Source of the DNA: Escherichia coli
GTDB lineage: Bacteria; Pseudomonadota; Gammaproteobacteria; Enterobacterales; Enterobacteriaceae
NCBI RefSeq assembly: GCF_051903065.1
Contig: NZ_CP178438.1
DNA: 64,000 nucleotides
Direction: 5' to 3' (one strand)
Shown piece by piece: positions 7,017 through 23,800 of the stretch (the stretch's first letter is position 1; the number at the start of each line of letters is the position of its first letter). The translations under genes and the position numbers were made by a program. The notes under the pieces were generated by a model, which made no database searches, was not told the DNA's origin, and worked only from the letters and a program-made list of their open reading frames with translations.

Positions 7017-8432
7017 GTGAAACAAAGCACTATTGCACTGGCACTCTTACCGTTACTGTTTACCCCTGTGACAAAAGCCCGGACACCAGAAATGCCTGTT
7101 CTGGAAAACCGGGCTGCTCAGGGCGATATTACTGCACCCGGCGGTGCTCGCCGCTTAACGGCTGATCAGACCGCCGCTCTGCGTGATTCTCTTAGCGATA
7201 AACCTGCAAAAAATATTATTTTGCTGATTGGTGATGGGATGGGGGACTCGGAAATTACTGCCGCACGCAATTATGCCGAAGGTGCGGGCGGCTTTTTTAA
7301 AGGTATCGATGCCTTACCGCTTACCGGGCAATACACTCACTATGCGCTGAATAAAAAAACCGGCAAACCGGACTACGTCACCGACTCGGCTGCATCAGCA
7401 ACCGCCTGGTCAACCGGTGTCAAAACCTATAACGGCGCGCTGGGCGTCGATATTCACGAAAAAGATCACCCAACGATTCTGGAAATGGCAAAAGCCGCAG
7501 GTCTGGCGACCGGTAACGTTTCTACCGCAGAGTTGCAGGATGCCACGCCCGCTGCGCTGGTGGCGCATGTGACCTCGCGCAAATGCTACGGTCCGGGCGC
7601 GACCAGTGAAAAATGTCCGGGTAACGCTCTGGAAAAAGGCGGAAAAGGATCGATTACCGAACAGTTACTTAACGCTCGTGCCGACGTTACGCTTGGCGGT
7701 GGCGCAAAAACCTTTGCTGAAACGGCAACCGCAGGTGAATGGCAGGGAAAAACGCTGCGTGAACAGGCACAGGCGCGTGGTTATCAGTTGGTGAGCGATG
7801 CTGCCTCACTGAATTCGGTGACGGAAGCGAATCAGCAAAAACCCCTGCTTGGCCTGTTTGCTGACGGCAATATGCCAGTGCGCTGGCTAGGACCGAAAGC
7901 AACGTATCACGGTAATATTGATAAGCCCGCAGTCACCTGTACGCCTAATCCGCAACGTAATGACAGTGTACCGACCCTGGCACAGATGACCGACAAAGCC
8001 ATTGAATTGTTGAGTAAAAATGAGAAAGGCTTTTTCCTGCAAGTTGAAGGTGCGTCAATCGATAAACAGGATCATGCTGCGAATCCTTGTGGGCAAATTG
8101 GCGAGACGGTCGATCTCGATGAAGCCGTACAACGGGCGCTGGAATTCGCCAAAAAGGATGGTAACACGTTGGTCATAGTCACCGCTGATCACGCCCACGC
8201 CAGCCAGATTGTTGCGCCGGATACCAAAGCTCCGGGCCTCACCCAGGCGCTAAATACCAAAGATGGCGCAGTGATGGTGATGAGTTACGGGAACTCCGAA
8301 GAGGATTCACAAGAACATACCGGCAGTCAGTTGCGTATTGCGGCGTATGGCCCGCATGCCGCCAATGTCGTTGGACTGACCGACCAGACCGATCTCTTCT
8401 ACACCATGAAAGCCGCTCTGGGGCTGAAATAA
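7017..8432 (+). CDS. phoA: Alkaline phosphatase PhoA (471-aa precursor, GTG start)
   Basis: Recognised signal peptide [21 protein letters not shown]; the ORF-track ATG at 6948 lies inside the Pho box, so the in-frame GTG at 7017 is the likely start. Confidence 0.95.
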
Positions 8433-11033: not shown

Positions 11034-11492
11034 ATGACAATTTGGGTGGATGCCGACGCGTGTCCCAATGTAATTAAAGAGATTTTGTATCGCGCGGCGG
11101 AACGTATGCAGATGCCGCTGGTACTGGTAGCAAACCAGAGTTTACGCGTGCCGCCATCGCGATTTATTCGTACGCTGCGCGTCGCGGCAGGTTTCGACGT
11201 TGCCGATAACGAAATTGTCCGGCAGTGTGAAGCGGGCGATTTGGTGATCACCGCAGATATACCTTTGGCTGCTGAAGCCATCGAGAAAGGCGCTGCGGCG
11301 CTTAATCCGCGCGGTGAACGTTACACGCCAGCGACCATTCGTGAGCGCCTGACGATGCGCGATTTTATGGATACCTTACGTGCCAGTGGGATCCAGACCG
11401 GCGGACCAGATAGCCTTTCACAACGTGACCGCCAGGCATTTGCCGCGGAGCTGGAGAAGTGGTGGCTGGAAGTGCAACGTAGTCGTGGCTAA
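11034..11492 (+). CDS. yaiI: UPF0178 family protein YaiI
   Basis: ORF trimmed to [13 protein letters not shown] (152 aa); divergent from proC. Confidence 0.8.
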
Positions 11493-11494
11493 AT

Positions 11495-11617
11495 GTAATT
11501 TATTATTTACACTTCATTCTTGAATATTTATTGGTATAGTAAGGGATGTATTGAGATTTTCACTTTAAGTGGAATTTTTTCTTTACAATCGAAATTGTAC
11601 TAGTTTGATGGTATGAT
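11495..11617 (+). promoter_or_regulatory. aroL promoter region with TyrR boxes and a TrpR operator-like site
   Basis: tgtaatttattatttaca (11495-11512) and tggaattttttctttaca (11571-11588) fit TGTAAA-N6-TTTACA; gtactagtttgatggta (11598-11614) resembles a trp operator half-site arrangement; tatgat -10 candidate at 11612-11617. Confidence 0.6.
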
Positions 11618-11674
11618 CGCTATTCTCATGACACCGGCTTTCGCCGCATTGCGACCTATTGGGGAAAACCCACG

Positions 11675-12199
11675 ATGACACAACCTCTTTTTCTGATTGG
11701 GCCTCGGGGCTGTGGTAAAACAACGGTCGGAATGGCCCTTGCCGATTCGCTTAACCGTCGGTTTGTCGATACCGATCAGTGGTTGCAATCACAGCTCAAT
11801 ATGACGGTCGCGGAGATCGTCGAAAGGGAAGAGTGGGCGGGATTTCGCGCCAGAGAAACGGCGGCGCTGGAAGCGGTAACTGCGCCATCCACCGTTATCG
11901 CTACAGGCGGCGGCATTATTCTGACGGAATTTAATCGTCACTTCATGCAAAATAACGGGATCGTGGTTTATTTGTGTGCGCCAGTATCAGTCCTGGTTAA
12001 CCGACTGCAAGCTGCACCGGAAGAAGATTTACGGCCAACCTTAACGGGAAAACCGCTGAGCGAAGAAGTTCAGGAAGTGCTGGAAGAACGCGATGCGCTA
12101 TATCGTGAAGTTGCGCATATTATCATCGACGCAACAAACGAACCCAGCCAGGTGATTTCTGAAATTCGCAGCGCCCTGGCACAGACGATCAATTGTTGA
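11675..12199 (+). CDS. aroL: Shikimate kinase II
   Basis: 174 aa; P-loop GPRGCGKTT. Confidence 0.95.
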
Positions 12200-12239
12200 T
12201 TTTCGAGCGCCTATACTTAACGTTCATCCCGTGAAATAA

Positions 12240-12440
<201 letters not shown>

Positions 12441-20857: not shown

Positions 20858-23800
20858 TCATTTCACCGCAAACGCGCTTTCCAGTTTGCTGTAGCCCAGA
20901 CCGTTGATCTTTTTCACTTTGATCTGCACCGGAATACGCTCTTTCATCGCTTCTACGTGGCTAATCACACCGATGGTTTTGCCACTGGCGTTCAGGGCAT
21001 CCAGCGCATCAAGGGCGGTATCCAGCGTTTCGCTATCCAGCGTGCCAAAACCTTCATCAAGGAACAGCGAGTCAATACGTGTTTTATGGCTGACCAGATC
21101 CGAAAGCGCCAGCGCCAGCGCCAGACTAACGAGGAAACTTTCGCCGCCGGAAAGGGTACGGGTATCGCGTACCGCATCTGCCTGCCAGGTATCAACAACC
21201 TCGACTTCCAGCGCCTCGCTGGCTTTGCGCTGTAACAGATAGCGCCCGTGCAGCCGGGTAAGTTGCTGATTAGCGAGATGGACTAAATTATCCAGCGTCA
21301 GCCCCTGGGCAAACTTGCGGAATTTATCGCCCTCTTTGGAACCTATTAGCGAATTCAGATATCCCCAGTCCTCAACCTGCTGCGTCATTTGAGCAATTTG
21401 CTGCATTAAGGTTTGTTGTTGCTGACGGTTATCTGCATCTTGCTTCAGCTGCTGGCGAATCTCGCCTTGACTCGTGGTGTTTTCACGCAACTTTTGGTGA
21501 GTTTGCGCTAACTCTTGCTGAATCTGCTCCACCGTCACAGTGAGAGCCAACCCGTCAGGTCGGTGTTGCTGATGCTGTGCCAGCGTTTCTGCTGTCTGAG
21601 TGACCAGCGTTTGCGCCTGACGGCGCTGGTTTTCCAGATTCTGCTTGAGCTGTTCCAGCTGCGTTAGTGTTTGTTCATCCATTAGCGCCGCAAGGAACGC
21701 CTGCTGATCGTCAAAGACGCTGGCCTGTAGCGCGGTGTCAAACTGCGCCTGGGCTTTTTGCAGACTTTGCGCCGCCAGAACGTCCTGTTGCTGTAATGTC
21801 TGCTGCTGGCTGTGTAATGCGAGACATTGTTCATGTACCTGCCGCCAGTTTTCCAGTACCACAGTTTCTTCGCAGTGCGGGAGTTCATCACTTTGCGGCA
21901 GCGTTTCCAGAATTGGCGTCAACTGCTGAATACGGTTTTGCAACTCGGTTAATTCGTTCTGGCGTAGTTGCCAGCTATGGGCTTCTTGCTGGCGCGCCGA
22001 CAACCAGCTCTCTTCTTCATCTTCCTGTGGCACTGTCAGTGCATAACCCGCCAATGCCGTTAAGAGCTGCTGCTGGCGTTGTTCAATTTGCTGTTGATAC
22101 TGGATAATTTGCTGATTATGCGCGGCAATCTGCCCTTGTAATTCATGTCGTTGGCTGAGTAACCGCAGCTGGCGTTCGTGCTCATCTTGTGCATCCAGCC
22201 ACGGTTGAATATCGTCCTGTGGCTGCAACGTGATATTGAGGCTGGCCGTGACGGCTTGCCATTGTTGAGTAAGTGCTTGCTCATCTTGTCGGAGGCTTTG
22301 CGCTTCGTTTTCATCACGCTGAAGCTGCTTTGTTAAGGCGTCCAGTTGCCCACGTAGCGTCGCACCTTCTTCACCGAGCTTTTTAACTTCGTTTTCCAGC
22401 GCCAGTAATCGAGACTGATTAACACCAGGCTCCAGCGCCTGATACGCCTCGACCGCCGGGTGGCTGGTGGAACCACAAAGTGGGCAAGGCTGACCCGCCT
22501 GTAACTGTGCACGTTGAGCTTCCAGCGTTTTGATGCGCGCTTCCTGCTCGCAAATGGTTTTGACATCGGCAAGTTGCTGCGTCTTTTCTTTATAACGCTG
22601 GCGCATTTCGTTAAGTGCGGCATTACGTTGCGTCTGTTCCAGAGTGACATTCTGGATAGTGACCATTAACTGCGCCAGACGTTTTTGTTGGGGAACAATC
22701 TGCCCATGCAGCGCGACCAGGCGCTGACGCAGTGGGCGTTGCTCGGCATGTTGCGCCAGGGCGCTAGCAACTTCATCGGCGGTTAACGTCAACGTGATCG
22801 CCGCAAGCGTATTAAGTTTTTGCTCAGCATGGGTTAACTGTTGCTGCCATTGCCGCAGATGCTCGCGATCGCTGGTTTGTTGGGAGAACTGCGCACGCCA
22901 ACCCGCCAGTTCGTTGTTCCACTGACGGAAGCGGTCGTGTTCCTGTAACCAGGTATTCAGGCTTTGTTGCTGCTGCTGTAATTCTGCTGACTGCTTCGCC
23001 GCGTGGTGGCGAATGCTCGCGCGAAGCGCCATTGTGCTCTGTAAGCGAGTATTTACTTCTTCAATCTGCTGGCGAGTATGCGCCAGCGCCGCGCTGTGTT
23101 CTGCGATGCGTTCCCAGTGCGGACGAAGATTTCGTGCCGGTTGTGCCAGACTGAGCGCCGCCAGTTGAGGTTGCGCTTTTTCTTCTTCGGCTAACGCCTG
23201 TTGCAAGGCCTGCTGACGGCGGCTGGCTTCTTGCTGCAATTCGTCCAGACGCGTTAACCAGTTTAGTGATTGTTGTTCTTGCTGCTGCGCGGTAATTAAC
23301 TGTTTTTCTTCGTCAGTAAGTACCTGCAAACTCGCTGTCAGCGATTGCACTTGTTCTGGCGTGAGCAACGCGACGCCGCTGGCCTGCGCTTGCAGCTTCT
23401 CCAGCTCAGTGCGGGCCGATTTGTGCTGCTCAAAAACCATCGCCGAGATTTGCCCGTAGATTTCAGTGCCGGTTAACTCCTCGAGCAATTCCGCGCGTTC
23501 TTTGGGTTTGGCATTCAGGAAGGCAGCAAATTGCCCCTGCGAAAGCAGCATCGAACGGGTGAAGCGCCCGTAATCCAGCCCGGTTAACGTCGCTGTCAGT
23601 TCCAGCTTATCTTTCACTTTGTCGGCGAGAATTTTGCCGTCGGCGCAGCGCGCCAGCTCTACGCGTGGCACCTGCAAATTACCGTCGGGTTGGTTACGCG
23701 CCCGATTCTGGCTCCAGAACGCGCGATACGCTTCACCTTTCACTTCAAACTCCACCTCCGCCAGACATTCGGCGGTATCGCGGGTCATGAGATCATTTTG

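Follow-up and report, generated by a model that had tools for sequence, protein, structure and literature searches.

TyrR boxes, a half-palindromic TrpR-type site and tandem transcription starts in the aroL control region of Escherichia coli

How far can the dual control of aroL by TyrR and TrpR be read from the DNA ahead of the gene, and how do the sites for the two proteins lie relative to the points at which transcription starts? These questions are raised by a short stretch within a 64,000-nt segment of an Escherichia coli genome (RefSeq assembly GCF_051903065.1, contig NZ_CP178438.1; the whole segment is referred to as the window), for which an initial annotation had proposed two to three boxes resembling TGTAAA-N6-TTTACA and a trp-operator-like palindrome upstream of aroL. 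The locus very probably holds the classical promoter and operators of the E. coli aroL-yaiA-aroM operon, under the control of TyrR and TrpR. The annotated gene order is phoA-psiF-adrA-proC(-)-yaiI-aroL-yaiA-aroM-ppnP, and the downstream open reading frame (11675..12199, plus strand; ORF list and RefSeq annotation), encoding the 174-residue shikimate kinase II, shows 100% identity to RefSeq E. coli records that carry the annotation 'shikimate kinase AroL'. A 501-bp query from the aroL region is 100% identical to many RefSeq E. coli genomes, and the region was found in 5,425 of 5,426 complete E. coli genomes. With the yaiI stop codon at 11490-11492 and the aroL start at 11675, the yaiI-aroL spacer spans 182 bp and is 65% A+T. 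Relative to K-12 MG1655, the control region of the window carries a single base change, an A at 11546 where K-12 has a G, which falls at position -2 of the main promoter (P1, below) and outside all motifs. Because the locus is the aroL operator itself, its regulon membership is a matter of identity and not of resemblance. It is the same locus as the K-12 aroL promoter-operator of DeFeyter et al. 1986, Heatwole and Somerville 1992 and Lawley and Pittard 1994, which likewise carries three TyrR boxes and one TrpR site; the control region is already known, and its recognition in the window is correct but ordinary. The less familiar point of the locus is a conserved second promoter that appears to lie directly beneath the TrpR site.

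A TyrR box is an 18-bp dyad, TGTAAA-N6-TTTACA, which is classed as strong when at least 10 of its 12 arm positions match and as weak when fewer do; the G-N14-C pair is invariant, and a weak box requires an adjacent strong one (PMC4374768). Three such boxes were found upstream of aroL, all with G-N14-C, in keeping with the two to three that had been expected. Box 3 (TGTAATTTATTATTTACA, read as TGTAAT-TTATTA-TTTACA; 11494..11511) is strong, with 11 of 12 consensus matches and one mismatch, and it begins one base ahead of the region as first delimited, at 11495. Box 1 (TGGAATTTTTTCTTTACA, TGGAAT-TTTTTC-TTTACA; 11570..11587) is also strong (10/12, two mismatches). Box 2 (TGTATTGAGATTTTCACT, TGTATT-GAGATT-TTCACT; 11547..11564) is weak, with 8/12 matches and four mismatches, and ends 5 bp ahead of box 1. 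The numbering follows what we take to be the published scheme. Boxes 3 and 1 show every sequence-level property of a TyrR box, and box 2 the formal ones only. Measured from centre to centre, box 3 and box 2 are 53 bp apart (about five helical turns), box 2 and box 1 23 bp, and box 3 and box 1 76 bp.

TyrR sites were scored by the published consensus, the G-N14-C rule and shuffling, instead of by a TyrR weight matrix. Only three sites with at most two mismatches and G-N14-C occur in the 64-kb window, and two of them are found here, 76 bp apart. Among 20,000 dinucleotide-preserving shuffles of the 182-bp spacer, at least two sites of this quality arose once, one site with at most one mismatch 25 times and three sites with at most four mismatches 60 times. 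The clustering of TyrR boxes is therefore far beyond chance. The count for the whole window at up to three mismatches is unremarkable (34, against 27.7 +/- 5.0 expected), and box 2 taken alone is at chance level by sequence, there being 77 four-mismatch sites in the window. Elsewhere, a TyrR-like 18-mer with two mismatches (TGTAAGCGAGTATTTACT, 23040-23057) is at chance level and distant from aromatic amino acid genes.

A scan of species-representative genomes for AroL recovered the Escherichia clades, E. albertii, E. whittamii and many Citrobacter species, and 21 Escherichia/Citrobacter sequences were aligned; four further loci were reached through AroL homologues in Enterobacter, Kosakonia, Intestinirhabdus (I. 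alba) and a Salmonella-like genome (P0045), whose genus was deduced from an AroL of 181 aa and from its cluster size. In the alignment, 11 of the 12 arm positions of box 3 are invariant and its N6 spacer varies, while the arms of box 1 have 8 of 12 positions invariant and a mean identity of 0.92 (0.76 in its spacer); the G and C of G-N14-C are kept in both boxes in 21/21 sequences. For the two strong boxes together, 19 of 24 arm positions are invariant, compared with 63 of 182 positions across the spacer and 3 of 12 within the N6 spacers of the boxes, a variability to be expected where a dyad is contacted by way of its arms. Only 1 in 100,000 random position sets matched this arm invariance. 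Beyond the alignment, box 3 is also present in the Salmonella-like, Intestinirhabdus alba and Kosakonia loci, and where box 1 would stand the Salmonella-like locus carries a box that matches the consensus perfectly; the aroL layout as a whole is found again in the Salmonella-like locus and in that of Intestinirhabdus, and for the most part in Kosakonia. Box 2, on the other hand, is not conserved: its mean column identity of 0.65 equals the background, and its arms have a single invariant position out of 12. A strict three-box model lacks comparative support, because box 2 is both at chance level and unconserved. Lawley and Pittard are said to have described, in 1994 (J Bacteriol 176:6921), three TYR R boxes and one TrpR site at aroL, with boxes 1 and 3 essential and box 2 dispensable, and the apparent lack of constraint on box 2 matches that dispensability. 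The comparative footprint marks as constrained boxes 3 and 1, the left half of the TrpR site and the extended -10 elements of both promoters described below, and box 2 as unconstrained; judged by sequence comparison, conservation is the decisive support for the putative regulatory motifs. The Shine-Dalgarno sequence (GGGGAA, 11661..11666, plus strand, 8 nt before the ATG) is kept as GGGGAA in 16 and as GGGAA in all of the 21 sequences.

Elsewhere in the family the aroL control region has been rebuilt, as observed for Enterobacter and Klebsiella. The Enterobacter locus (L046 1221-1503) has a promoter resembling P1, followed downstream by two boxes, and no box 3, TrpR site or second -10 was found there. 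In Klebsiella pneumoniae, a mapped start lies 144 nt upstream of the ATG and 3 nt after a TyrR-like box (TGCAATGATAAGTTTACA) that holds the -10.

The TrpR-type element was compared with an ideal operator, a dyad of about 18 bp akin to GTACTAGTT.AACTAGTAC, whose CTAG cores stand 8 bp apart. The aroL site GTACTAGTTTGATGGTAT (11597..11614), composed of GTACTAGTT-TGATGGTAT, matches this dyad at 13 of 18 positions, and the matches are unevenly divided: the left half, GTACTAGTT at 11597-11605, is perfect (9/9), and the right half agrees at 4/9, its CTAG core reading ATGG. The proposed trp-operator-like palindrome accordingly holds in part, in that GTACTAGTT is present and marks the top TrpR matrix position, but the element is half a palindrome with a degenerate right half. 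Being such a half palindrome with five mismatches, it escaped a search for the ideal trp operator with up to three mismatches, which returned no match. The 9-mer GTACTAGTT alone is not significant, as about 0.5 occurrences are expected per window on both strands. The TrpR matrix scan that the initial annotation had suggested as a check was run with a symmetric matrix derived from the K-12 trp, aroH, trpR and mtr operators, with aroL excluded, and it placed 11597-11614 first among the approximately 64,000 window positions with a score of 13.63, compared with 22.9-27.4 for the four training operators. A near-tie of 13.49 at 7027-7044 (GCACTATTGCACTGGCAC) falls in phoA signal-peptide codons and is a chance-level site. 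In the alignment, the mean column identity of GTACTAGTT is 0.97, and GTACTAG is present in 20 of the 21 sequences as well as in the Salmonella-like, Intestinirhabdus and Kosakonia loci.

Where does transcription start relative to these elements? Three datasets, whose coordinates were converted via the aroL ATG (406,405 in MG1655 version 3), agree on a main start at 11548 on the plus strand, 127 nt upstream of the aroL ATG. Kim et al. 2012 placed the aroL start at NC_000913.2 405,502 with 136 reads, and their 51-nt upstream sequence for aroL ends at the G of box 2; Cappable-seq gave the same position (405,502; log2 enrichment 6.2, relative read score or RRS 4.74), and SMRT-Cappable-seq reported an aroL-yaiA-aroM transcript from 406,277, which corresponds to it. 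The start lies 8 nt downstream of an extended -10, TGgTATAGT (11532..11540, plus strand; hexamer TATAGT at 11535-11540), that defines P1; at 17-bp spacing from it no good -35 was found. The motif TTGnTATAGT (11531-11540) is invariant at 9 of 10 positions of the alignment. A generic promoter scan returned TCGAAA-17-TATGAT as its sole result, which was rejected as the main promoter because the main start lies 77 bp further upstream; that promoter alone would put every box upstream of the promoter. Relative to the P1 start, box 3 occupies -54..-37, box 2 -1..+17, box 1 +23..+40 and the TrpR site +50..+67. Boxes 2 and 1 and the TrpR site are therefore located in the transcribed leader, so the description of the elements as preceding aroL is right with respect to the gene, but these three lie downstream of the main start at 11548.

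This geometry can be set against what is known of aroL regulation. Phased DNase hypersensitivity reportedly led Lawley and Pittard in 1994 to propose looping. A potential IHF site has also been reported at aroL; no site with up to one mismatch to the IHF consensus WATCAANNNNTTR was found in 11480-11680. The aroL(M) unit, conserved in Enterobacterales, is repressed by TyrR and TrpR, and comparative regulon analysis counts aroLM among the TrpR targets of close E. coli relatives (PMC5343134); tyrosine-mediated repression of aroLM proceeds through the TyrR hexamer (PMC10170061). Knock-down of tyrR by CRISPRi de-represses aroL, whereas knock-down of trpR caused no significant change of aroL in either single-cell RNA-seq or a P_aroL reporter (bioRxiv 10.64898/2025.12.20.695731). 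The dual repression put forward in the initial annotation is thus borne out by reviews, by the strong/weak box rules and by the TrpR matrix, with the TrpR arm as its weaker part, given the lack of an aroL effect of the trpR knock-down in the 2025 preprint. P1 would be bracketed by TyrR boxes, box 3 lying just upstream of the -35 zone and boxes 2 and 1 just past the start. When tyrosine and ATP are present, TyrR dimers would assemble into a hexamer, and a single hexamer could engage boxes on either side of the core promoter, so that the approximately 35 bp carrying the promoter would be looped or wrapped, shutting out RNA polymerase or trapping it. On 11597-11614, a TrpR dimer carrying tryptophan would add a smaller, tryptophan-dependent repression. 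In this scheme, the motifs, their statistics, their conservation and the start positions come from the present analysis, and binding, hexamer formation and looping from the literature. The box spacing and the promoter geometry fit the published TyrR-hexamer looping model.

The promoter returned by the generic scan coincides with a second mapped start, at about 11624 (11623..11625, plus strand), approximately 50 nt upstream of the ATG. Cappable-seq located this start, P2, at U00096.2 405,579 (window 11625; RRS 7.35, log2 enrichment 3.9), and SMRT-Cappable-seq reported an aroL-yaiA primary transcript from 406,353, at about window 11624; P2 is absent from the list of Kim et al. 2012. P1 and P2 both conform to the sigma-70 extended -10 pattern, TGnTAnnnT with a 5'-triphosphate start 6-9 nt downstream. 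The extended -10 of P2, TGgTATGAT (11609..11617, plus strand), overlaps the right half of the TrpR operator, and 17 bp from TATGAT lies a -35-like TCGAAA (11589..11594, plus strand), the sequence of which is not conserved; in Citrobacter other 4/6 -35 hexamers (TTGGCG, TTAACG) occupy identical 17-bp spacing. TGnTATGAT is invariant at eight of nine positions in 21/21 sequences, the sole variable base being the free 'n'; it is retained in C. sedlakii, where GTACTAG is lost, and persists in Citrobacter variants (GATGATAT) in which a G-to-A change weakens the right half of the TrpR site. Relative to the P2 start, box 1 occupies -55..-38 and the TrpR site -28..-11, so that the TrpR-type site overlaps core promoter elements of P2 and not those of the classical P1. 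As a predicted operator, the aroL site is first by matrix, conserved and superimposed on P2, yet it is only half a dyad. The parallel between the box 3-P1 and box 1-P2 pairs is underlain by a 22-nt direct repeat at 76-bp spacing. Tandem duplication was considered as the origin of the two modules and rejected, since the two resemble each other only weakly outside the functional motifs, the score being attained in 19 of 5,000 shuffles; for the same reason the parallel is architectural, and common descent is not demonstrated.

Three readings other than the classical one deserve consideration, and they differ widely in probability. The plainest, that an AT-rich spacer has produced the motifs by chance and that they play no part in regulation, could draw on the base composition of the spacer, on the unremarkable whole-window count of sites with up to three mismatches and on the chance-level status of both box 2 and the bare 9-mer; it is effectively refuted by the local shuffles, by the arm invariance across genera and by established genetics (PMC5343134, PMC10170061, bioRxiv 10.64898/2025.12.20.695731). 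A narrower doubt concerns the TrpR-like element, which might not work as a TrpR site in vivo and be conserved for other reasons, such as P2 or leader RNA, so that TyrR alone would govern aroL. The failure of trpR CRISPRi to change aroL significantly (bioRxiv 10.64898/2025.12.20.695731) speaks for this, as does a matrix score far below those of the training operators and nearly equalled by the chance site in phoA, but the growth conditions of the preprint may have kept P1 dominant. P2 has GTACTAGTT between its -35 and its -10, a stretch whose sequence a promoter leaves unconstrained; GTACTAGTT nevertheless shows its 0.97 identity and is kept from Escherichia to Kosakonia. In footprinting experiments TrpR reportedly protects the aroL operator site, 11597-11614, and aroLM is listed as a TrpR target in close relatives (PMC5343134). 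A non-working site is unlikely.

The remaining reading gives the TrpR site a different promoter. On this account aroL would be controlled by two tandem modules, each a TyrR box with an extended -10, about 77 bp apart; P2 would be the true target of TrpR, the site acting chiefly as a P2 operator by direct occlusion, and the 'synergy' with TyrR would reflect a promoter hierarchy without TyrR-TrpR contact, the effect of tryptophan becoming visible once P1 is off. We regard this as a tentative proposal, one that falls somewhat short of an even chance, both for the modular arrangement and for the hierarchy drawn from it. In its favour, P2 is seen in two 5'-triphosphate-selective datasets, with a higher RRS than P1 (7.35 vs 4.74), and one of these, SMRT-Cappable-seq, gives a full-length aroL-yaiA transcript from it; both datasets come from one laboratory, however, and the list of Kim et al. 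2012, from which P2 is missing, was obtained in the same medium. The sequence evidence points the same way as the transcripts, in that TGnTATGAT holds apart from its free 'n' even where GTACTAG is lost or the right half of the TrpR site deteriorates, a 4/6 -35 at 17-bp spacing is kept in each lineage, and the offset of box 1 from P2 mirrors that of box 3 from P1. In addition, GTACTAG and TGnTAT(G/C)AT co-occur at a fixed distance in all GTACTAG-bearing genera examined and neither is found in Enterobacter, and TGGTAC+AGT, at the right half of the mtr operator, makes an extended -10 whose register is identical to that of TGGTAT+GAT at aroL. When 4 bp were inserted between box 1 and the TrpR site, reportedly again by Lawley and Pittard in 1994, tyrosine repression is said to have risen and the tryptophan effect to have been abolished, which is the phenotype expected if the spacing of P2 is destroyed. 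Against the P2 reading, TyrR is reported to enhance TrpR protection slightly in vitro, which favours some direct interplay of the two proteins. If the P2 reading is real, it would account simply for several earlier observations: the effect of tryptophan, reportedly confined to tyrR+ cells, would be hidden elsewhere because P1 swamps P2; the 4-bp insertion would kill P2 and so increase tyrosine repression and remove the tryptophan effect; and the trpR knock-down would have had no measurable effect because P1 was active. TrpR may thus mainly occlude P2. To our knowledge, the P2 start is absent from the classical description of the aroL promoter. If confirmed, a promoter under the TrpR site would offer a simpler mechanism for the TyrR-dependent effect of tryptophan and would be of consequence, too, for strain engineering in which aroL is de-repressed to make aromatic compounds.

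Related operators place this arrangement in context. The other gene co-regulated by TyrR and TrpR is mtr, at which TyrR activates and TrpR dominates, whereas at aroL TyrR represses and dominates (bioRxiv 10.64898/2025.12.20.695731). Both loci have a strong TyrR box on the upstream side, and in both the right half of the TrpR operator, TGGTA(C/T), serves at the same time as TGnTA in an extended -10. When the K-12 mtr sequence from -71 to -51 relative to its ATG is compared with window positions 11597-11617, GTACTCGTGTACTGGTAC+AGT at mtr and GTACTAGTTTGATGGTAT+GAT at aroL yield the extended -10s TGGTACAGT and TGGTATGAT, respectively, in identical register. The distance from the TyrR box to the TrpR operator differs, at 57 bp for mtr as against 27 bp for aroL. 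The boxes of aroF overlap its promoter or sit upstream of it; at aroL, unlike aroF, they straddle the core promoter, and two are in the transcribed leader. The likeness to aroF-tyrA, an operator with three TyrR boxes, consists in multiple TyrR boxes, with a strong and weak pair and a distal strong box, through which a tyrosine-induced hexamer represses (PMC10170061). With the trp operator (trpLEDCBA) the aroL site shares the GNACTAGTT half-site and the overlap of an operator with a -10, but in trpO, GAACTAGTTAACTAGTAC, the dyad is nearly perfect and has the -10 in its middle, whereas the aroL site is good in one half only and its overlap with the -10 is marginal in position, at the edge.

Several further features of the locus were observed. 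The leader RNA fold is not significant (z-score -1.6), and no Rfam family matched in 11400-12300 at E-values up to 1. A small leader hairpin at 11641-11654 (TCGC/GCGA, 4 bp with a 6-nt loop), about 20 nt before the Shine-Dalgarno sequence, has a small energy and no Rfam match; GC-rich stems of differing sequence stand at its place in other genera, and three of seven predicted pairs are compensated, a modest covariation. Control of the aroL leader by GcvB was set aside as not relevant, since the reported effect is just a 1.6-fold unexplained activation. SMRT-Cappable-seq also detected read-through transcripts, yaiI-aroL-yaiA(-aroM-ppnP-rdgC), from a yaiI promoter upstream of 11200 (MG1655 405,741); part of the aroL mRNA therefore originates at a third start, further upstream, and runs across all operators. 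A weak antisense start at about 11586 on the minus strand, with four reads and assigned to proC (Kim et al. 2012), fits a TACAAT -10 read on the opposite strand from ATTGTA (11594-11599), within the interval that separates box 1 from the TrpR site. Finally, in one of the 5,426 complete E. coli genomes, 18AR0366 (NZ_CM132283.1; L054 1672-2501), an IS1A lies between the -10 and the start of P1; its insertion point corresponds to window 11537-11545, with the 9-bp target duplication TAGTAAGGG, and the element cuts box 3 and P1 off from the downstream part of the region, with boxes 2 and 1, the TrpR site, P2 and aroL.
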